From assembly GCF_024502345.1 (NCBI RefSeq), contig NZ_JALDNN010000001.1: a stretch of DNA of 64,000 nucleotides; one strand, given 5' to 3'. This document shows, one piece after another, positions 8,493 through 62,598 of the stretch (positions are counted from its first letter, which is position 1; every line of letters starts with the position of its first letter). A program made the position numbers and the translations under genes. The stretch is from Escherichia coli (GTDB lineage: Bacteria; Pseudomonadota; Gammaproteobacteria; Enterobacterales; Enterobacteriaceae). Under the pieces are notes generated by a model. The model had not been told where the DNA came from, made no database searches, and worked only from the letters and a program-made list of their open reading frames with translations.

Positions 8493-9023
8493 TCAGGAAC
8501 GTTTACGCGGCATCATGCGTAGAAGTGTGTTGTCCTTCCAGAAATAGTGGTGTGCCAGTGCAGCCGCAGCGTGCAAACCGATGACAAAATATCCCAGATT
8601 CGCCAGCGTTTCATGCCACGACTTTAAGCTATCTACCCGTTCGAAATTGGCCTCTGAAGCGTAAGGCATCGTCAAACCAAACGCAAACCACGGGTTGCCC
8701 CGGTTATACATCATCACCAAACCAATCACTGGCAGCGCAATAAACAGGAGATAAATCACCAAATGTCCCAAATGCGCCAGTCCCGTCATCATCGGTTTCG
8801 GCTTAGGTATAATCGGCGGGGTTGGGTATTTCAGTCTTAACAAAAGACGAACCACCATCAGCACGAGAATTGAGATGCCACAGGAAACATGAATCATGTT
8901 GATGAGCGGCCGTTCGCTACGTGGGAAGAAACCACGAAACTCCATTGCGCAATACGCTGCGATAACCAGCAAAAAGACCAGCCAGTGAATGCCGATTTGT
9001 AACCTTGAGTATTTATTTTCCAT
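8493..9023 (-). CDS. cybB: Cytochrome b561
   Basis: 176 aa from the internal Met MENKYSRLQIGIHWLVFLL...; multi-pass membrane protein. Confidence 0.85.
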   Translation of the reverse strand: MENKYSRLQIGIHWLVFLLVIAAYCAMEFRGFFPRSERPLINMIHVSCGISILVLMVVRLLLRLKYPTPPIIPKPKPMMTGLAHLGHLVIYLLFIALPVIGLVMMYNRGNPWFAFGLTMPYASEANFERVDSLKSWHETLANLGYFVIGLHAAAALAHHYFWKDNTLLRMMPRKRS

Positions 9024-9211
9024 AACATTTCCTGCTTCAACATAATTTTCCGTTAACATAACGGGCTTTTCTCAAAATTTCATTAAATATTGTTCACCCG
9101 TTTTCAGTACGTTACGTTTCACTGTAAGAATGGAGATTGCCCATCCCACAATCCTGGTCTAAGCCTGGAAAGGATCAATTTTCATCCGAACGTTCCTGAC
9201 AGGAGAAAACC

Positions 9212-10213
9212 ATGAGTAAAGTTGGTATTAACGGTTTTGGTCGTATCGGTCGACTGGTGTTGCGTCGATTACTTGAAGTCAAAAGCAACATAGACGTTGT
9301 CGCTATTAATGATCTCACTTCTCCAAAAATTCTCGCCTACCTGCTCAAACATGATTCAAACTACGGACCGTTCCCCTGGAGCGTTGATTTTACGGAAGAT
9401 TCACTTATCGTTGATGGGAAAAGTATCGCGATTTACGCCGAAAAAGAGGCTAAAAATATTCCGTGGAAAGCGAAAGGGGCAGAAATCATTGTCGAATGTA
9501 CTGGCTTTTATACCTCCGCCGATAAATCGCAGGCGCATCTTGATGCTGGTGCGAAGAAGGTGTTGATTTCCGCTCCTGCCGGTGAAATGAAAACTATCGT
9601 TTATAACGTCAATGACGACACTCTGGATGGCAACGACACCATTGTTTCCGTGGCGTCATGCACCACTAACTGTCTTGCGCCGATGGCCAAAGCCTTGCAT
9701 GACAGTTTCGGGATAGAAGTCGGCACGATGACGACCATTCATGCCTATACTGGCACCCAGTCACTGGTGGATGGCCCACGTGGTAAAGATTTACGTGCTT
9801 CACGCGCAGCGGCAGAAAATATCATTCCCCACACTACGGGGGCGGCAAAAGCCATTGGTCTGGTGATCCCGGAACTGAGCGGCAAACTGAAAGGTCATGC
9901 GCAACGCGTGCCGGTGAAAACAGGTTCGGTCACTGAACTGGTATCGATTCTCGGAAAAAAAGTGACTGCCGAAGAGGTGAATAACGCACTTAAACAAGCA
10001 ACCACCAATAACGAGTCATTTGGTTATACCGATGAAGAAATAGTCTCTTCCGATATCATTGGCAGCCATTTCGGTTCAGTGTTTGATGCCACGCAAACGG
10101 AAATTACCGCCGTGGGCGATTTACAACTGGTGAAAACGGTCGCCTGGTACGATAACGAATATGGCTTCGTCACGCAGCTTATTCGCACCCTCGAAAAATT
10201 CGCTAAACTCTGA
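9212..10213 (+). CDS. gapC: Glyceraldehyde-3-phosphate dehydrogenase C, intact 333-aa reading frame
   Basis: Full-length GAPDH with NAD-binding [10 protein letters not shown] and the catalytic SCTTNCLAP motif; uninterrupted. Confidence 0.9.
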
Positions 10214-10221
10214 CGCGCACA

Positions 10222-10250
10222 GGCGGAGGGAAAAAACCTCCGCCTCTTTC
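10222..10250. terminator. Bidirectional hairpin between convergent gapC and aldA
   Basis: GGCGGAGG-GAAAAAA-CCTCCGCC followed by TCTTTC. Confidence 0.5.
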
Positions 10251-10255
10251 ACTCA

Positions 10256-11695
10256 TTAAGACTGTAAATAAACCACCTGGGTCTGCAGATATTCATGCAG
10301 GCCATGTTTACCATCTGCGCCGCCAATACCGGATTTACGCCATCCGGCGTGGAAGCCTTGCATAGCTTCGAAGTTTTCACGGTTGATGTAAGTTTCACCA
10401 AACTTCAGCCCTTTAATGGCTTTCATCGCGACGTTCAGATTTTGGGTATAGATTGATGAGGTCAGGCCGTAATCACTGTCATTAGCCATTGAGATAGCAT
10501 CTTCCAGCGTGTCAAATGCGACTACCGGCAGAACCGGGCCAAAGGTTTCCTCATGCATAATCGACATTTCCTGGCGAACATCCAGCAGCAATGTCGGCGG
10601 ATAATAATATCCTTTCCCCTCTACCGCTTTGCCACCCAACGCCACTCTCGCCCCTTCTTCTACTGCGCGCGCCACTTTTTGCTCGACCCTTTCCAGCGCC
10701 GCGGCGTTAATCAACGGCCCCATCGCAATGTCGTTGCGTTCAGCGGGGTTACCAAATTGAACCGCCTGCATCGCTTCACCCAGCCGATTGACGAACTGAT
10801 CATAAATGCCTTTCTGTACATAAACACGTTCTGCACAGTTACACACTTGCCCACTATTAATGACGCGTGAATCAACGATGGCTTTGACTGCCAGTTCAAG
10901 ATCGGCATCGTCCATTACGATAGCTGGTGCTTTACCCCCCAATTCCAGACACACTTTGGTGATGTTTTTCGCCGCAGTCGCCATGATCTTCTCACCTGCA
11001 GAGACGCTGCCTGTCATACTGACCATTGTGACCTTTGGGTTACCCGCCAGTTCTTGCCCAACGGTTTCACCACGCCCCAGTACAAGGTTAAACACGCCGC
11101 GCGGAAGGCCTATTTCATCGACGATTTTGGCGAATGCAATCGCATTGTTTGGCGTAAATTCACTAGGTTTAATGACGATGGTATTACCGGTCAAAAGAGC
11201 GGGAGCCATTTTGCGGGCAATGAGGAAGAACGGGAAGTTCCACGGCAGAATGCCGGTAGTCACACCAAGCGCACGTTTAAACAAAAGAATATTTTCTCCT
11301 GGACGATCGCTTTGAATAATCTCGCCCTCGTAACGCCGTGCCCACTCCGCCATGTAATCGATATAGTCGGCAGTAAAAGCCACTTCGACTTCAGCCAGCT
11401 GCTGGATCTTGCCCCCTTCTTCAACAATCAGCGCACTGATTTCACTGGCGCGTTCGCGGATCCCGGCGGAGATTTTGCGCAACCAACTGGCGCGTTCAAT
11501 AGCAGGCAACGCTTCCCATTCTGGTTGTGCACGTTCTGCTGCATCGATTGCCTTACGGGCATCCTCGGCCTGACCATCGGGTATGCGGGAAATGACAGCC
11601 TCTGTAGCAGGGTTTACCACATCAATCCATGCGTCTCCACGCCAGGTAACAAACTGTCCATCGATATACATAGGATGTTGAACGGGTACTGACAT
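10256..11695 (-). CDS. aldA: Lactaldehyde dehydrogenase (NAD-dependent aldehyde dehydrogenase A)
   Basis: 479 aa, MSVPVQHPMYIDGQFVTWRGDAWIDVVNPATE..., aldehyde dehydrogenase family. Confidence 0.9.
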   Translation of the reverse strand: MSVPVQHPMYIDGQFVTWRGDAWIDVVNPATEAVISRIPDGQAEDARKAIDAAERAQPEWEALPAIERASWLRKISAGIRERASEISALIVEEGGKIQQLAEVEVAFTADYIDYMAEWARRYEGEIIQSDRPGENILLFKRALGVTTGILPWNFPFFLIARKMAPALLTGNTIVIKPSEFTPNNAIAFAKIVDEIGLPRGVFNLVLGRGETVGQELAGNPKVTMVSMTGSVSAGEKIMATAAKNITKVCLELGGKAPAIVMDDADLELAVKAIVDSRVINSGQVCNCAERVYVQKGIYDQFVNRLGEAMQAVQFGNPAERNDIAMGPLINAAALERVEQKVARAVEEGARVALGGKAVEGKGYYYPPTLLLDVRQEMSIMHEETFGPVLPVVAFDTLEDAISMANDSDYGLTSSIYTQNLNVAMKAIKGLKFGETYINRENFEAMQGFHAGWRKSGIGGADGKHGLHEYLQTQVVYLQS

Positions 11696-20637: not shown

Positions 20638-21694
20638 GGCTTTGTTGAATAAATCGAACTTTTGCTGAGTTGAAGGATCAGATCACGTATCTTCCCGACA
20701 ACGCAGACCGTTCCGTGGCAAAGCAAAAGTTCAAAATCACCAACTGGCCCACCTACAATAAAGCCCTCATCAACCGTGGCTCCATAACTTTCTGGCTGGA
20801 TGATGAAGCTATTCAGGCCTGGTATGAGTCAGCAACACCTTCTTCACGAGGCAGACCTCAGCGCTATTCTGACCTTGCCATCACGACTGTGCTGGTCATT
20901 AAACGCGTATTCAGGCTGACCCTGCGCGCTGCGCAGGGCTTTATTGATTCCATTTTTTCTCTGATGAACGTTCCGCTACGCTGCCCGGATTACAGCTGTG
21001 TCAGCAGGCGGGCAAAGTCGGTTAATGTCAGTTTCAAAACGCCCACCCGGGGTGAAATCGCACACCTGGTAATTGATTCCACCGGGCTGAAGGTCTTCGG
21101 TGAAGGCGAGTGGAAAGTCAAAAAGCATGGCCAGGAACGCCGCCGTATCTGGCGTAAGCTGCATCTCGCCGTTGACAGTAAAACACATGAAATCATCTGC
21201 GCTGACCTGTCGCTGAACAACGTTACGGACTCAGAGGCCTTCCCCGGGTTAATCCGGCAAACCCACCGGAAAATCAGGTCAGCCGCCGCCGATGGCGCTT
21301 ACGATACCCGGCTATGTCACGATGAACTGCGGCGTAAGAAAATCAGCGCGCTTATCCCTCCCCGAAAAGGTGCGGGTTACTGGCCCGGTGAATATGCAGA
21401 CCGTAACCGTGCAGTGGCTAATCAGCGAATGACCGGGAGTAATGCGCGGTGGAAATGGACAACAGATTACAACCGTCGCTCGATAGCGGAAACGGCGATG
21501 TACCGGGTAAAACAGCTGTTCGGGGGTTCACTGACACTGCGTGACTACGATGGTCAGGTTGCAGAGGCTATGGCCCTGGTACGAGCGCTGAACAAAATGA
21601 CGAAAGCAGGTATGCCTGAAAGCGTGCGTATTGCCTGAAAACACAACCCGCTACGGGGGAGACTTACCCGAAATCTGATTTATTCAACAAAGCC
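20638..21694 (+). mobile_element. IS903-group (IS5 family) insertion sequence, 1057 bp
   Basis: Perfect 18-bp terminal inverted repeats GGCTTTGTTGAATAAATC at 20638..20655 and 21677..21694; a single transposase ORF; the flanking 9-mers ACGAGATGT and GAGTGATGC do not match, so there is no target-site duplication. Confidence 0.9.
20670..21638 (+). CDS. IS903-type DDE transposase
   Basis: Translation ...WPTYNKALINRGSITFWLDDEAIQAWYESATPSSRGRPQRYSDLAITTVLVIKRVFRLTLRAAQGF... matches the remembered IS903/IS102 transposase; the true start may be internal to the listed ORF. Confidence 0.85.
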   Translation: MKDQITYLPDNADRSVAKQKFKITNWPTYNKALINRGSITFWLDDEAIQAWYESATPSSRGRPQRYSDLAITTVLVIKRVFRLTLRAAQGFIDSIFSLMNVPLRCPDYSCVSRRAKSVNVSFKTPTRGEIAHLVIDSTGLKVFGEGEWKVKKHGQERRRIWRKLHLAVDSKTHEIICADLSLNNVTDSEAFPGLIRQTHRKIRSAAADGAYDTRLCHDELRRKKISALIPPRKGAGYWPGEYADRNRAVANQRMTGSNARWKWTTDYNRRSIAETAMYRVKQLFGGSLTLRDYDGQVAEAMALVRALNKMTKAGMPESVRIA

Positions 21695-22038
21695 GAGTGA
21701 TGCGTTACTTTCCGGTAAAAATAAAAAGGTAAATAGAGCGCAATATCGGAAATAACATCGCCAGTTTCATTCAAAATCGCCCCCAGACGTGTTTGCTGAT
21801 TGCACTCACGCGCCAACATGCCATCCAGCGCATTGAGCGCCATACGGATAAAAAGCACGATGGGCAATAGCAAAAAGAGGATGGGTTGTGCCACCAACAC
21901 CAACAGCAATCCGGTAAAAAGAGAAAGCGCCAGTGCCGTAAGAGTGATGTGATTCGCTGTAACGTGGTGCTTATAAAGCCAAAACATCGTCGGCCTTAAC
22001 AGCGACTGAAAGAGCGGTTTTATCTGGTAGAGCGTCAT
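21695..22038 (-). pseudogene. ynbA: CDP-alcohol phosphatidyltransferase YnbA, N-terminal ~114 codons only, 3' end replaced by the IS
   Basis: MTLYQIKPLFQSLLRPTMFWLYKHH... membrane protein; the ORF runs into the IS right end, against a remembered 201-aa full length. Confidence 0.5.
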
Positions 22039-22336
22039 TTATCATTCCGTGATATTCAGTTTGCTCTATGGTGCATCAATTGTGATGGCGGAGATATCAC
22101 AACGCGGAGCATCAACGTAAATTCGGAATATATCAAGATGTGGTGGATGGTTTTCCTACACATCTGTTTGATTACCGACTGGATGTCAGTGAGATACCAT
22201 CGATCACTGTACGAATCAATGAATCCATTGCCTTTTCCCTGATTATCCAGCCGCAAATCCTGGCCTTAAACATATGCACTCCATGCCATTAAAAAAGAAA
22301 CAAAAGGGAAATGCATCTTTCCCTTTTGTATATTCG

Positions 22337-23197
22337 TTATTCTCGCGAAATACCATCCAACGTAGACAACACTTCCTCAGAAAGATGCAATTTTTCAGCA
22401 GCCATATTCTCCCGTAAATGCGCAACAGAAGACGTCCCTGGGATCAGCAAAATATTCGGTGAACGTTGTAACAGCCACGCCAGCGCCACCTGCATGGGTG
22501 TTGCACCCAGGCTCGCAGCAACATCGGAAAGTGTGGACGATTGCAGCGGTGTAAAGCCCCCGAGCGGGAAGAACGGCACGTAGGCAATGCCATCGTGGGC
22601 CAAAGCATCAATCATTGCATCATCAGCACGGTGCGCGATGTTGTATTCGTTTTGCACACAGACAATTTCGGCAATCTTGCGCGCCTCTGCAACCTGCGTC
22701 GGTGTGACATTGCTCAGGCCAATATGTTTTACCAGGCCTTGTTGTTGCATCTCTGCCAGCACGGTCAGGCTGGCCTCAATCGATCCTTCCGCTGGGCCAT
22801 GACCATCCCCCATCATAACGCGCAGGTTAACCACATCCAGCACGTCCAGCCCGAGATTACGTAGATTATCGTGCACCGCTTTTTGCAGCTCTGCCGGAGA
22901 AAATGCGGGCAACCAGGAAGCGTCCTCTCCACGCCGCGCACCAATTTTAGTGACAATTGTCAGGTCGTCAGAGTAAGGATAAAGCGCTTCGCGGATAATC
23001 TGATTGGTGACGTGCGGACCATAAAAGTCGCTGGTATCAATGTGAGTGACGCCCAATGCCAGCGCCTCACGCAGCACAGTTATAGCGACGTGGCGATCTC
23101 TTGGGGGACCAAAAACCCCAGGACCTGCCAGTTGCATCGCGCCATAACCAAGACGGTTAACGGATTTTGTACCGAGAGTAAATGTATTGCTGCTCAT
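22337..23197 (-). CDS. ydbC: Aldo-keto reductase YdbC
   Basis: 286 aa, MSSNTFTLGTKSVNRLGYGAMQLAG..., AKR family; followed by a hairpin plus T-run near 22296..22330. Confidence 0.85.
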   Translation of the reverse strand: MSSNTFTLGTKSVNRLGYGAMQLAGPGVFGPPRDRHVAITVLREALALGVTHIDTSDFYGPHVTNQIIREALYPYSDDLTIVTKIGARRGEDASWLPAFSPAELQKAVHDNLRNLGLDVLDVVNLRVMMGDGHGPAEGSIEASLTVLAEMQQQGLVKHIGLSNVTPTQVAEARKIAEIVCVQNEYNIAHRADDAMIDALAHDGIAYVPFFPLGGFTPLQSSTLSDVAASLGATPMQVALAWLLQRSPNILLIPGTSSVAHLRENMAAEKLHLSEEVLSTLDGISRE

Positions 23198-23425
23198 CGC
23201 ACCCTGCCCTGTAATAAAACGGATTGAGAAAAATCAGTATAGAAACGAAAAGAGATAAATAATGCGAAGGCGTAAACAAGATTACTGGATGAGTTGCTCT
23301 ATTGTCCTGAAAAACACAAAACAAAACGCGTCAAGTACCGCATCCGGCAATAAAAAACCGCAACCTGTATAGCGTTGCGGTTTAGGTATCACATGCTAAA
23401 AATTAGAATGTTCAGTATCTGGACG

Positions 23426-24016
23426 TTACTGTTTCGGTCGCAGATTCTCATCAAATACCAGACGTTTCCTGTTCGGTTCAACTTCCCGCAATGGCTCAAC
23501 TTGATGCAACGTCTGCTTACAACGAGTCACCAGCACCTGATACTCATGCGTACCCTGCTTTTTCCATGCCAGCTCCTGCTCACTGAGTTCACGAATCGCT
23601 TTCGCCGGGCTGCCGACAATCAGGTAATTGGCAGGCATTTCTGCTTTGGCTTTCACAAATGCGGATGCGCCAACAATGCTGTTCTCGCCAATCACCGCGC
23701 CGTCCATCACTACCGCGTTCATTCCCACTAATGCATTGCGGCGGATAATGCAACCATGAAGGATAGCGCTATGACCAATATGCCCATCTTCTTCCACGAC
23801 AGTATCCTGTTCGGGAAAACCGTGCATAACGCAATTATCCTGAATGTTCGCGCCATCTTTCACTACGATACGACCAAAATCGCCACGCAGATTGGCATTT
23901 GGCCCAACGTAAACGCCCTTGCCGAGAATAACATCGCCGATCAATACCGCTGTCGGATGGACAAAACTCTCTTCTGGCACAACCGGAGTCAGACCATCTA
24001 TCTGGTAAATTGGCAT
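23426..24016 (-). CDS. paaY: Hexapeptide-repeat thioesterase PaaY, apparently intact
   Basis: 196 aa, [34 protein letters not shown]... Confidence 0.85.
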
Positions 24017-24555
24017 AACGCCTCCTGTTCAATATTCAAACCGCCAAAACGTTGAAAATACAGGCTTCCCGGCGCAGGCAGTTCACCGACCGAGGTTTCA
24101 CCTTTTTCACTAACGAACGCTAAAGCAGCAGGCGCTACGCGCTGATAAATGTTGATACACAGCTGACGCGCCGTATGCCCTGCCCAGTGCGCCGGAAGCA
24201 ACTCCTCTGGCAACAATGGGTCTTTAAGGACGACACGGCGATAAAAATGGATCAGTAAAAGCTGAATATGAAATGCACGCTCCGGGGTTAACTCGTCTGC
24301 TGCCTCTTTTAACAGCGGCACCAGCGGGCGGAATGACTGAATAAAGGTTTCGTACATGGCATTTTGTTCAGTTAAATGCCAGCACTCTTCCACTCTGGCA
24401 CGCAGTGCTGCACGAGAAAGCGCCAGTGGTATTTGCGCTTCAAAACAAATCACGTTATCCGCCAGAAGGGCATTATTTAGCGCATTACGTGCGGCGGGAC
24501 GGTTAAGGGTCAGCAACAATACTTGTTGCTGACGGCTGACGATCAGTTCGCTCAT
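23998..24555 (-). pseudogene. Deletion-fusion remnant: first ~31 codons of paaF joined in frame to the C-terminal ~150 codons of paaX
   Basis: Translation MSELIVSRQQQVLLLTLNRPAARNALNNALL (PaaF N-terminus) continues directly into ADNVICFEAQIPLALSRAALRARVEECWHL... (PaaX C-terminal half). Confidence 0.6.
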
Positions 24556-25193
24556 GCCATCCCCTTCGCGTCAAAGTCAACCACCACATCGCTGGTCAGC
24601 GGCAGTGCCTGGCAACTCAACACATAGCCTGCGGCCAGTTCATCCGGTTCCAGACTGTAATTGGTTTCCATCGCCACTTTGCCACGCAGCACTTTGCATT
24701 TGCAGGTCGCACAGACGCCGCCTTTGCAGGCATAGGGCAGATCAGCCCCCTGGCGCAATGCCGCATCGAGAATGCTTTCATCGTCGGCATTAAGCACGAT
24801 TTCCCGATCCCGCCCATCCTGACGTACAGTCACTTTTTGTCCGTCACTTTGCACGTTAACGCTACGTTTGACGCGCGTGCCAGGCGTATTAAACCGCTCC
24901 AGATGAATGGTTTTATCTGGCATTCCCAGTGCTTTTAAGGCGGCTTCCGTCTCATCCATCATCGCCGCCGGACCACAAATAAATGCCTCATCATAAAGAC
25001 GAAAATTAATGAGCGAGGCCCCAAGTGACTGTAATTTTTCACCGTCAATACGCCCGTGAAGCAGATCGCTGTCGAGGGTTTCCTGACTGAAAATGCACAA
25101 CAACTGTAAACGCTGAGGATATTTGTCTTTCAGGTCTGCCAGTGCCTGGCGAAACATCATGCTCTGGCTGGTACGGTTACCGTAGATCAGGGT
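24552..25193 (-). pseudogene. paaE: paaE remnant, C-terminal ~200 codons (NAD-binding and 2Fe-2S ferredoxin domains), N-terminus deleted
   Basis: MMFRQALADLKDKYPQRLQLL...CKGGVCATCKCKV... matches the PaaE C-terminus; PaaE-like sequence ([11 protein letters not shown]) extends upstream to about 25193 and then stops. Confidence 0.6.
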
Positions 25194-25956
25194 GATGCCC
25201 GCACAAAACCAGCGACATGCTCTGCAACTGGCTTGTGCAGGCGGCGGTAGCCTTGCGGGAACGCTGGTGACGGCTGATCCGCAAATTGCGCGTCAGTTTA
25301 TTGCCGACGCGGCACGTACGCATGGGCGAATTCAGATCCTCAATGAAGAATCGGCAAAAGAATCCACCGGGCATGGCTCCCCACTGCCACAACTGTTACA
25401 TGGTGGGCCTGGTCGCGCAGGAGGCGGTGAAGAATTAGGTGGTTTACGAGCGGTGAAACATTACATGCAGCGAACCGCTGTTCAGGGTAGTCCGACGATG
25501 CTTGCCGCTATCAGTAAACAGTGGGTGCGCGGTGCGAAAGTCGAAGAAGATCGTATTCATCCGTTCCGCAAATATTTTGAGGAGCTGCAACCAGGCGACA
25601 GCCTGTTGACTCCCCGCCGCACAATGACAGAGGCCGATATTGTTAACTTTGCTTGCCTCAGCGGCGATCATTTCTATGCACATATGGATAAAATTGCTGC
25701 TGCCGAATCTATTTTTGGTGAGCGTGTGGTACATGGATATTTTGTGCTTTCTGCGGCTGCGGGTCTGTTTGTCGATGCCGGTGTCGGTCCGGTCATAGCT
25801 AACTACGGGCTGGAAAACTTGCGTTTTATCGAACCCGTAAAACCAGGCGATACCATCCAGGTGCGTCTCACCTGTAAGCGCAAGACGCTGAAAAAACAGC
25901 GTAGCGCAGAAGAAAAACCAACAGGTGTGGTGGAATGGGCGGTATGGGCACGCTAA
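25192..25956 (+). pseudogene. paaZ: paaZ remnant: end of the aldehyde-dehydrogenase domain plus the MaoC hotdog domain, without N-terminus or native C-terminal end
   Basis: [35 protein letters not shown]... [48 protein letters not shown]... corresponds to PaaZ from about residue 430. Confidence 0.6.
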
Positions 25957-26963
25957 CCTCACCAATTGCTCGTGGTAAAGATGCCCCGTCTAACGCAGTG
26001 CTCCTTAATGAAACCATCGCCGACTACACTGGCGTGCCGATGGAGATCCCTCGCGCTATCGCGGTATTTGAACGTTATGCCGGGCCGGAGTATAAGCATC
26101 AGGAAATGGGCCAGCCCAACGTCAGTACCGAACGCCGGGAGTTAGTGGTGCGCTGGATCAGTACAGTGGGTAACTATGACTACATTTTTGACTGGATCTT
26201 CCATGAAAACGGCACTATTGGCATTGATGCCGGTGCTACGGGCATCGAAGCGGTGAAAGGTGTTAAAGCGAAAACCATGCACGATGAGACGGCGAAAGAT
26301 GACACGCGCTACGGCACGCTTATCGATCACAATATCGTGGGTACTACACACCAACATATTTATAATTTCCGCCTCGATCTGGATGTAGATGGCGAGAATA
26401 ACAGCCTGGTGGCGATGGACCCAGTGGTAAAACCGAATACTGCCGGTGGCCCACGCACCAGTACCATGCAAGTTAATCAGTACAACATCGGCAATGAACA
26501 GGATGCCGCGCAGAAGTTTGATCCGGGCACGATTCGTCTGTTGAGTAACCCGAACAAAGAGAACCGCATGGGCAATCCAGTTTCCTATCAAATTATTCCT
26601 TATGCAGGTGGTACTCACCCGGTAGCAAAAGGTGCCCAGTTCGCGCCGGACGTGTGGATCTATCATCGTTTAAGCTTTATGGACAAGCAGCTTTGGGTAA
26701 CGCGTTATCATCCTGGCGAGCGTTTCCCGGAAGGCAAATATCCGAACCGTTCTACTCATGACACCGGTCTTGGACAATACAGTAAAGATAACGAGTCGCT
26801 GGACAACACCGACGCCGTTGTCTGGATGACCACCGGCACCACACATGTGGCCCGCGCCGAAGAGTGGCCGATTATGCCGACCGAATGGGTACATACTCTG
26901 CTTAAACCATGGAACTTCTTTGACGAAACGCCAACGCTAGGGGCGCTGAAGAAAGATAAGTGA
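25935..26963 (+). pseudogene. tynA: tynA remnant: C-terminal ~340 codons of the periplasmic copper/topaquinone amine oxidase, lacking signal peptide and N-terminal domains
   Basis: Contains the cofactor-precursor motif region TVGNYDYIFDW and the C-terminal catalytic-domain sequence; overlaps the paaZ remnant out of frame; convergent with feaB as in K-12. Confidence 0.65.
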
Positions 26964-41028: not shown

Positions 41029-41964
41029 ATGTCGCAAAATCAAGAAATTAGTAAGAAAGAACAATACAACCTGAACAAATTACAAAAACGTCTGCGTCGT
41101 AACGTGGGCGAAGCCATTGCTGACTTCAATATGATTGAAGAAGGCGATCGCATCATGGTTTGCCTCTCCGGGGGTAAAGACAGCTATACCATGCTGGAGA
41201 TTCTGCGCAATTTGCAGCAAAGCGCGCCAATCAATTTTTCGCTGGTGGCTGTTAACCTCGATCAAAAGCAACCGGGCTTCCCGGAACACGTTCTGCCCGA
41301 GTATCTTGAAAAGCTGGGCGTTGAGTACAAGATTGTCGAAGAGAACACTTACGGTATCGTGAAAGAGAAGATTCCAGAGGGCAAAACCACTTGCTCACTG
41401 TGTTCTCGCCTTCGTCGCGGTATCCTTTATCGTACCGCAACGGAACTGGGGGCGACGAAGATCGCGCTGGGTCACCATCGTGACGATATCCTGCAGACGT
41501 TGTTCTTAAATATGTTCTACGGCGGCAAGATGAAAGGTATGCCTCCGAAACTGATGAGCGATGATGGCAAACATATCGTTATTCGTCCGCTGGCCTACTG
41601 CCGCGAGAAAGATATTCAGCGATTTGCCGATGCAAAAGCGTTCCCGATTATTCCGTGCAACCTGTGCGGTTCACAGCCTAACCTGCAACGTCAGGTGATT
41701 GCTGACATGTTGCGTGACTGGGATAAACGTTATCCAGGGCGTATCGAGACGATGTTCAGCGCGATGCAGAATGTGGTGCCGTCGCATCTGTGCGATACTA
41801 ACCTGTTCGATTTCAAAGGCATCACCCACGGTTCTGAAGTGGTTAACGGGGGTGATTTGGCGTTTGATCGCGAAGAGATCCCACTACAACCGGCGGGCTG
41901 GCAGCCAGAAGAAGATGAAAATCAGTTGGATGAGTTACGGCTGAATGTGGTTGAAGTGAAATAA
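41029..41964 (+). CDS. ttcA: tRNA 2-thiocytidine(32) synthetase
   Basis: 311 aa; SGGKDS PP-loop motif and CxxC motifs. Confidence 0.9.
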
Positions 41965-55612: not shown

Positions 55613-55855
55613 GATGTAATCCTTGTGCAGACAAATTTCTTGTTACCTAAACGTAACAATACCATGACATTTCACCGTTGTCTGCTCTGAAAACCTCACC
55701 TCTTAGCTGGATTTACAATCAACGCATTGATTAGTTAGCTAATGTTGCTACTTCCTTCCCTGACTATTGATGATCTGAATGAATTGTCGCGGTAAAATAG
55801 CCCCGCCAGGGGTTTCCGGCATGACGACAATTATCTGGAGGAGCCTGATAAAACA

Positions 55856-59924: not shown

Positions 59925-60845
59925 ATGATGAATAATAAAGTCAGCTTCACTAACAGCAATAATCCAACCATCTCTTTGTCTGCAGTGATCTATTTCCCTC
60001 CAAAATTTGATGAAACCCGTCAGTATCAGGCAATTGTGGTATCTCACCCAGGTGGGGGCGTTAAAGAACAAACGGCCGGAACCTATGCCAAAAAACTGGC
60101 GGAAAAGGGATTTGTCACTATTGCTTATGACGCATCTTATCAAGGTGAAAGTGGCGGCGAGCCGCGTCAGTTAGAAAACCCATACATTCGTACTGAAGAC
60201 ATCAGTGCCGTGATTGATTACCTGACAACGCTTTCTTATGTCGACAATACCCGAATTGGTGCGATGGGAATTTGTGCCGGTGCAGGATATACAGCCAATG
60301 CTGCAATTCAGGATCGCCGCATCAAGGCCATCGGTACCGTTAGTGCGGTCAATATTGGTTCGATGTTCCGTAATGGTTGGGAAAACAATGTGAAATCTAT
60401 TGATGCCCTGCCATACGTTGAAGCGGGTTCAAACGCCCGAACCAGCGATATTAGCAGCGGAGAATATGCCGTTATGCCACTGGCACCAATGAAGGAGTCC
60501 GATGCGCCGAACGAAGAACTGCGTCAGGCCTGGGAGTATTACCACACCCCTCGCGCGCAGTATCCAACAGCACCGGGTTACGCTACTTTGCGCAGCCTTA
60601 ACCAGATTATTACCTATGATGCTTACCATATGGCGGAAGTGTACCTGACTCAGCCGATGCAGATTGTGGCGGGCAGCCAGGCAGGGAGCAAATGGATGAG
60701 TGACGACCTGTACGATCGGGCATCAAGCCAGGATAAACGCTATCACATTGTTGAAGGCGCAAACCATATGGATCTTTATGACGGCAAAGCCTATGTGGCT
60801 GAAGCAATTTCAGTATTAGCTCCGTTCTTTGAGGAAACTCTGTAA
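59925..60845 (+). CDS. ycjY: Alpha/beta-hydrolase-fold protein YcjY
   Basis: 306 aa from the internal Met; hydrolase-fold motifs including GICAGAGY around a nucleophile-elbow-like position. Confidence 0.75.
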   Translation: MMNNKVSFTNSNNPTISLSAVIYFPPKFDETRQYQAIVVSHPGGGVKEQTAGTYAKKLAEKGFVTIAYDASYQGESGGEPRQLENPYIRTEDISAVIDYLTTLSYVDNTRIGAMGICAGAGYTANAAIQDRRIKAIGTVSAVNIGSMFRNGWENNVKSIDALPYVEAGSNARTSDISSGEYAVMPLAPMKESDAPNEELRQAWEYYHTPRAQYPTAPGYATLRSLNQIITYDAYHMAEVYLTQPMQIVAGSQAGSKWMSDDLYDRASSQDKRYHIVEGANHMDLYDGKAYVAEAISVLAPFFEETL

Positions 60846-61777
60846 TGAAACATATTCAAATCCGCAATAGTGATATGGCCTGGCATATTGCTGCCAATAT
60901 TCAGTTTCCACCAAATTTTGATGAGTCAAAACAGTATCCGGTGATTATCAGCGTCCATCCTTTTGGCAGTTGTAAGGAGCAGACGTCTGGCAATATCTAT
61001 GGCAAAGCATTGGCTGAAAAAGGCTATCTCGTTCTCGCTTATGACGCCAGTTTCCAGGGAGAATCTGGTGGGGAGCCTCGCTGGATAGAAGATCCGACAC
61101 AGCGCGTAGAGGATATTAGCCGTGTTATCGATTATGCAGTAACTCTGCCATATGTTAATGCTGAACGTATTGGCGTGCTGGGAGAGTGTGGGGGTGGTGG
61201 CTATGCCATTAATGCCGCGCTGACAGAAAAACGAATTAAAGCAGTAGTGAGTATTACGGGTGTTAATATCGGGCGTCTTTTTCGGGAAGGTTTCAGCAAT
61301 TACGATCCGATTGGCGCATTGAATGCAATGGCGTCGCAACGAACCAAAGAGGCTCGTGGTGGAGAATTACAGATCAACGAATTACTTCCCGCCAGCCTGG
61401 ATGCAGCAAAAGCCCATGGACTGACCGAACGCGATGTTTATGAAGCAACTGACTACTATAAAACACCACGCGGGCAACAACCGGGAGGTGCGACAAAAAT
61501 GTTGTTCTCACATGCACAGAAAACGCTGGCCTGGGATGCCTTCGCATTTACTGAAGTGTTACTGACTCAGCCGGTGATGGTAGTAGTTGGTGAAAAAGTC
61601 GGTGCCTTCGGTGCTTATCGTGATGGACTGGAAGTCTATGGCCGGGCGATGGTTTCGCAGGATCGTCAGTTAGTTTCATTACCCGATTTCTCACATTATG
61701 AACTGTATGACAAACCGGAAGCAGTTCAGGAGGCGCTGGAAAAAGTTATTCCTTTTTTCAACACCCATCTGGGATAA
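60845..61777 (+). CDS. Second alpha/beta-hydrolase, paralog of YcjY, start overlapping the ycjY stop
   Basis: 310 aa clearly alignable to YcjY (for example YDASFQGESGGEPR, VIDY..TLPYV, GECGGGGYAINAA). Confidence 0.75.
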   Translation: MKHIQIRNSDMAWHIAANIQFPPNFDESKQYPVIISVHPFGSCKEQTSGNIYGKALAEKGYLVLAYDASFQGESGGEPRWIEDPTQRVEDISRVIDYAVTLPYVNAERIGVLGECGGGGYAINAALTEKRIKAVVSITGVNIGRLFREGFSNYDPIGALNAMASQRTKEARGGELQINELLPASLDAAKAHGLTERDVYEATDYYKTPRGQQPGGATKMLFSHAQKTLAWDAFAFTEVLLTQPVMVVVGEKVGAFGAYRDGLEVYGRAMVSQDRQLVSLPDFSHYELYDKPEAVQEALEKVIPFFNTHLG

Positions 61778-61782
61778 GTTTC

Positions 61783-62433
61783 ATGAGAAATATTATGAAA
61801 AATGTACTGATTCTTGGTGCTGGCGGTCAGATAGCCCGCCATGTGATTAATCAACTGGCAGATAAACAAACCATTAAACAAACTTTATTTGCTCGTCAGC
61901 CAGCAAAAATACACAAACCCTATCCAACTAATAGCCAGATTATTATGGGGGATGTACTGAATCATGCAGCACTGAAGCAGGCCATGCAGGGACAGGATAT
62001 TGTGTATGCCAACCTTACGGGGGAAGATTTAGATATTCAGGCAAATTCAGTGATCGCTGCGATGAAAGCCTGTGATGTTAAACGTCTGATCTTTGTTCTT
62101 TCCCTCGGCATTTATGATGAAGTTCCAGGAAAATTTGGCGAATGGAATAATGCAGTTATTGGTGAGCCCCTAAAACCATTCCGCAGGGCTGCGGATGCAA
62201 TTGAGGCTTCTGGATTGGATTATACAATTCTTCGCCCTGCCTGGCTGACTGATGAAGATATTATTGATTATGAGATTACCTCACGCAATGAACTATTCAA
62301 AGGTACGATCGTATCGCGTAAGAGTGTCGCCGCATTAATCACAGATATCATCGATAAACCTGAGAAACACATTGGTGAGAATATAGGCATCAATCAACCT
62401 GGTACTGATGGTGATAAGCCATTCTTCATGTAA
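61783..62433 (+). CDS. NAD(P)-binding Rossmann-fold protein (NmrA/atypical SDR-like)
   Basis: 216 aa with an N-terminal LILGAGGQIA glycine-rich motif; the true start may be the Met at 61795. Confidence 0.7.
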   Translation: MRNIMKNVLILGAGGQIARHVINQLADKQTIKQTLFARQPAKIHKPYPTNSQIIMGDVLNHAALKQAMQGQDIVYANLTGEDLDIQANSVIAAMKACDVKRLIFVLSLGIYDEVPGKFGEWNNAVIGEPLKPFRRAADAIEASGLDYTILRPAWLTDEDIIDYEITSRNELFKGTIVSRKSVAALITDIIDKPEKHIGENIGINQPGTDGDKPFFM

Positions 62434-62598
62434 ATCAATTATATAACTACCATCGTACTGTACTATGTGCAGTACGATTTATTAAACTTATTAAGGTGAA
62501 CTGATCAATCAGATGCGATTAACATGTGTAGAACCAGTAAGAATAAAATACGCCATGTATATAACATTACGACAATTCTAATATCTGCACATCAATGA

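Follow-up and report, generated by a model that had tools for sequence, protein, structure and literature searches.

The gapC gene of this Escherichia coli strain is, with a probability of about 90%, an intact ancestral allele encoding a type I NAD+-dependent phosphorylating GAPDH (EC 1.2.1.12) that serves as an accessory isoenzyme. It occupies positions 9212..10213 on the plus strand of the window, the 64,000-nucleotide stretch of DNA analysed here, and reads from ATG to TGA through 333 codons free of internal stops. The start at 9212 is the earliest start codon past the upstream in-frame stop, and the boundaries agree with the PGAP coding sequence of E. coli FDAARGOS_943, in which the gene is 100% identical. 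The presence of an intact gene in strains other than K-12, the K-12 pseudogene, the structure and kinetics of the enzyme and its practical use are already documented.

Reading frame, family membership and a near-identical enzyme

An AGGAG resembling a Shine-Dalgarno element lies at 9201..9205 (+), 6 nt before the ATG, and presumably functions as one. The Rossmann NAD-binding motif GxGxxG is formed by G-F-G-R-I-G at codons 8-13 (9233..9250, +), within N7-G-F-G-R-I-G-R14, and D34 and S120 lie further along. The catalytic cysteine is codon 150 (TGC, 9659..9661, +) in A148-S-C150-T-T-N-C, and the catalytic histidine is codon 177 (CAT, 9740..9742, +) in T175-I-H177-A-Y-T180. Both members of the Cys-His dyad are found in their family contexts, ASCTTNC and TIHAYT, and are invariant among 13 intact alleles. 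The phosphate-site (Ps/Pi) residues Thr180, Arg198, Thr209-Gly210 and Arg232 are all kept and align with their GapA counterparts, and the C-terminal part carries W312-Y-D-N315-E.

Against the NCBIfam equivalog model for type I GAPDH, TIGR01534, GapC scores 446.2 bits (E = 7e-134; curated cut-off 367.2) in a match spanning residues 3-325 and profile positions 1-330 of 330. Pfam assigns residues 3-102 to PF00044 (Gp_dh_N, 122 bits) and residues 155-313 to PF02800 (Gp_dh_C, 195 bits), which corresponds to the two-domain architecture of an N-terminal NAD-binding Rossmann domain followed by a C-terminal catalytic domain. A 333-codon open reading frame with such an HMM score cannot have arisen by chance. 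Score and architecture, the catalytic residues, synteny and identity together place the gene among the type I GAPDHs and identify it as the E. coli gapC orthologue. The uninterrupted frame and the score above the TIGR01534 cut-off bear out the first-pass annotation, which had described a complete 333-codon GAPDH gene with its NAD-binding and catalytic-cysteine motifs intact.

The GAPDH family of E. coli comprises gapA, epd/gapB and gapC, so the same annotation correctly called gapC a third GAPDH paralog in family terms, though Epd is an erythrose-4-phosphate dehydrogenase. Epd (GapB) shares the superfamily and the two-domain architecture with GapC, but GapC is not one of its members: it reaches only 275.4 bits against TIGR01532 (cut-off 530.55) and 279.8 bits against NF010058 (cut-off 539), and an identity as Epd was rejected. 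The ArsJ-associated GAPDH (NF033735) was likewise rejected, with 306 bits against a cut-off of 450 and with cybB and aldA, rather than arsJ, as neighbours. GapA (b1779), the main glycolytic GAPDH, has the fold, the Cys/His chemistry and the NAD dependence in common with GapC at 46% identity, and a 16-residue motif and WYDNE are conserved in both proteins. In a PDB search with GapC, several other bacterial GAPDHs score about 410-480 bits, above any chain in a tier near 300 bits. These tiers fit separate origins of gapA and gapC, which are described, in a statement on lateral gene transfer cited in PMC1796617, as being of different evolutionary origins. The GC content of gapC is 47.7% (GC3 47.9%), compared with 49.5% for the window and a GC3 of 61.6% for hrpA; this lower value is weakly suggestive of, and compatible with, the published proposal of lateral acquisition.

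The closest characterised protein is "EcGAPDH1" (PDB 7C5F, 7C5H, 7C5P, 7C7K and mutants; WP_000048667.1), which is identical to the window protein at 331/333 residues over the full length. Catalytic Cys150 and His177, the NAD-site and phosphate-site residues and the cybB/aldA locus are all alike. The only differences from 7C5F are V74I and E104D, both conservative and away from the catalytic residues; V74 and E104 are found in all 12 other sampled alleles. WP_000048667.1 occurs in an E. coli B-strain derivative and in many other strains, and the B-strain allele (V74, E104) and the 7C5F sequence appear to be the same protein. The window protein itself corresponds to RefSeq WP_038340197.1, which appears in 216 blocks of the assembly collection and is thus widespread. 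EcGAPDH1, named the E. coli type 1 GAPDH, has a KM for glyceraldehyde-3-phosphate (G3P) of 0.73 mM; its activity is abolished by C150A and drops about 8000-fold with H177A, and it has been crystallised in complexes with NAD, G3P, phosphate and the thioacyl intermediate (PMC8615399). By analogy with this active protein, the window allele is predicted to perform NAD+-dependent oxidative phosphorylation of G3P.

The gene lies between two synteny markers. The divergent upstream neighbour is cybB (cytochrome b561 / superoxide oxidase; 8493..9023, minus strand), and the convergent downstream neighbour is aldA (aldehyde dehydrogenase A; 10256..11695, minus strand). The order and orientation of cybB-gapC-aldA are the same as in K-12 and other E. 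coli, and about 6 kb around gapC are collinear with K-12 at an identity of about 99%. The 42-nt convergent gap between gapC and aldA contains a 9-bp GC-rich hairpin (10221..10245) with a folding energy of -19.3 kcal/mol (z = -3.9), and 0 of 200 shuffled sequences were equally stable. This hairpin is probably a bidirectional terminator common to gapC and aldA. It was not flagged by a terminator scan because its tail consists of 4 T rather than 5.

The K-12 pseudogene and the prevalence of intact gapC

In K-12 MG1655, gapC is annotated as b4493, a 1001-bp pseudogene at NC_000913.3 1489713-1490713 that PGAP labels "frameshifted; internal stop". Formerly split into gapC_1 (b1417) and gapC_2 (b1416), it has the same locus, orientation and flanking genes as the window gene. 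Alignment of the two reveals 12 substitutions and one deletion, for a nucleotide identity of 98.7%. The first lesion is at codon 39, where the window has AAA (Lys; 9326..9328, +) and K-12 has TAA through an A-to-T change at 9326. The second lies in the A7 run of codons 248-250 (G-K-K; 9955..9961, +), which is one A shorter in K-12; the resulting A6 shifts the frame. The K-12 copy thus carries the K39 stop, the 1-bp deletion and an R18G replacement, whereas the window gene has none of the three. The first-pass annotation had described gapC as annotated as a split pseudogene in K-12 and had proposed this comparison; that description was right, both lesions are now mapped, and the intact frame of the window has no identical counterpart in K-12.

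The state of gapC in K-12 is not that of the species. Among 5426 complete E. coli genomes, gapC is found in 5417, with 5409 matching at least 80% of the gene length; identity reaches 95% or more in 5323 genomes and lies between 90% and 95% in the other 94. The frequency of the lesions was estimated in the same 5426 genomes from exact matches of short K-12 probes centred on each lesion. The K-12 A6 frameshift 56-mer matches 1046 genomes exactly and the K-12 TAA 57-mer matches 1152, many K-12 laboratory derivatives being included in both counts. Each lesion haplotype is therefore present in about 20% of complete genomes, and about 80% are without them. A 57-mer probe carrying the A7 allele of the window gave no match in E. 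coli genomes, almost certainly because BLAST masked the A run as low-complexity sequence and not because the allele is absent. The K-12 A6 probe was therefore used in its place, since its identity bands tell A6 from A7: the bands at 98.2% and 93.0% represent alleles that keep A7 and whose flanking SNPs resemble those of the window or of B.

The two K-12 lesions do not always go together, since the stop haplotype is present in 1152 genomes and the frameshift in 1046. Strain M6 (NZ_CP010186.1), for instance, carries the A6 frameshift but not the codon-39 stop. A further kind of loss is found in SCPM-O-B-7615 (NZ_CP144926.1, 2501-4678), where an IS1A-associated deletion takes away the part of gapC beyond codon ~66 and also the 3′ end of aldA. 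Such repeated inactivation in E. coli means that gapC is dispensable in some niches. Intact gapC is nevertheless the majority state in the species, K-12 is the exception, and the intact form is presumably ancestral. The first-pass annotation had concluded that this strain "retains" a potentially functional copy. Its functional part stands, given the intact frame and the activity of the near-identical protein, but the rarity implied by "retains" does not.

Proposed role and alternative readings

The phosphorylating GAPDH cycle is well established for this family, and GapC is expected to follow it. NAD+ would be bound by the N-terminal Rossmann domain through GxGxxG and Asp34, and the Cys150 thiolate, activated by His177, would attack the aldehyde of G3P. 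Passage of the hydride to NAD+ would then yield a thioacyl enzyme, from which inorganic phosphate would free 1,3-bisphosphoglycerate. The 7C5x/7C7K structures show intermediates of this cycle directly (PMC8615399). In the cell, GapC most likely acts beside GapA as an accessory, conditionally useful isoenzyme, and its expression is probably weak or confined to some conditions. The gene can be spared in the laboratory and under some host conditions, and this would account for its loss in K-12 and about one-fifth of sequenced E. coli.

In natural isolates, gapC is reported to be intact and to be expressed preferentially at low temperature. One reading, an unlikely one, is that selection tied to a particular niche maintains the gene, as in survival in the cold or in water away from a host, and that its loss in about 20% of E. 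coli, the K-12-like strains, reflects adaptation to a host-only or laboratory existence. If this is true, V74I and E104D could change the properties of the enzyme.

Somewhat less likely still is the opposite possibility that gapC is intact yet silent, a cryptic gene drifting towards a pseudogene that has so far acquired no disabling mutation and contributes nothing to the cell. Several independent losses of gapC in E. coli and the occurrence of the K-12 lesions in about a fifth of genomes speak for it, as does the promoter search. A consensus scan of 8900-10400 found no above-chance sigma-70-like promoter in the intergenic region between cybB and gapC, and its one weak plus-strand site (9017-9046, 9/12 matches) compares with 2.1 expected by chance. 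As the scan stays at chance level, no promoter is claimed, and we only infer that gapC is expressed in this strain. The pattern of variation, however, misfits neutral drift. Twelve diverse 1002-bp alleles were sampled at 99.2% to 95.5% identity, including those of a B-strain derivative, O157:H7, urinary and bloodstream isolates and stream-water isolates. All 12 of these full-length alleles, from distant lineages, are annotated as intact coding sequences. With the window allele added, the 13 sequences have 81 polymorphic sites, 69 of them at third codon positions, and only 11 variable amino-acid positions, every change being conservative. Pairwise dN/dS is 0.04-0.10 at dS up to 0.18, and gapC is under strong purifying selection. 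The gapC_1 fragment is also among the differentially expressed genes in a K-12 microarray study (PMC4512719), which shows transcription of the locus even in its broken state. Finally, PMC1796617 cites Espinosa-Urgel & Kolter (Mol Microbiol 1998, 28:325) for an adaptive role of gapC in aquatic environments, which also counts against a gene without a contribution to the cell.

A GAPDH fold put to another main substrate, whether erythrose-4-phosphate in the manner of Epd/GapB or as the arsenate-handling partner of ArsJ, is by far the least credible explanation: the partial scores for Epd (280 bits) and the ArsJ-associated form come from the common fold and fall far under both cut-offs while that of TIGR01534 is exceeded, cybB and aldA flank the gene with no arsJ neighbour, and the near-identical enzyme (331/333 residues) uses G3P and NAD+ as its substrates and has been crystallised with G3P, thioacyl and phosphate bound.

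K-12 is unrepresentative of E. coli at this locus, with most strains encoding a second working GAPDH. Metabolic models based on K-12, calls of gapA essentiality and engineering designs may accordingly not carry over to other strains. Use has already been made of BL21 gapC as a lower-activity substitute for gapA: according to reviews of synthetic methylotrophy (PMC9397406, PMC11611044), it took the place of gapA, with the aim of reducing GAPDH flux, in a strain that was later evolved to grow on methanol.

Other differences from K-12 in the window, and the surroundings of gapC in FDAARGOS_943

The whole window was mapped onto K-12, and several differences lie away from gapC. An insertion sequence (20638-21693, about 1056 bp) contains a 322-aa DDE transposase reading frame at 20670-21638 (Pfam DDE_Tnp_1_5 / DDE_Tnp_1) and is bounded by the terminal inverted repeats GGCTTTGTTGAATAAATCG...; we take it to resemble IS903/IS102. 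The element removes the 5′ end of ynbC and takes the place of ynbB and part of ynbA, of which a remnant with 93% identity to K-12 is left at 21694-22137. At 22137-23425 the window lacks most of the K-12 gene ydbD and all of the 8.6-kb ydbA autotransporter locus, which in K-12 is itself disrupted by IS insertion. Of this region only pdxI (22244-23412) is left, flanked by what remains of ynbA and paa.

Of the paa phenylacetate cluster, only three short, directly adjoining fragments persist at 23425-25944, derived from paaX/Y (23425-24464), paaE/F (24463-25195) and the C-terminal MaoC domain of paaZ (25193-25944). Next to them, the amine oxidase gene tynA is truncated, with 342 codons of its C-terminal end left (25935-26963). 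The paa/tynA junctions within 23425-26963 contain no IS element. Judging from these truncations, neither phenylacetate nor phenylethylamine should support growth of the strain.

Two mobile elements of K-12 are missing. The 23-kb cryptic prophage Rac is absent at about 41036-41078, where the ompN/uspF side runs straight into an intact ttcA (41029-41964), so that the Rac attachment site is unoccupied. IS5F is also absent, leaving a clean junction near 55735 (55735-55738). The reverse situation is found at 60902-62594, a segment of about 1.7 kb that is missing from K-12 and carries two reading frames (60845-61777 and 61783-62433). Here K-12 appears to be the deleted form, with tiny ymjC/ymjD remnants at the site.

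In the complete genome of FDAARGOS_943 (NZ_CP065615.1), whose gapC is identical to that of the window, the ydcA-cybB-gapC-aldA block lies between IS600 copies. Both ydcF and the hokB side are truncated, and the record, although labelled E. coli, has a Shigella-like IS load.
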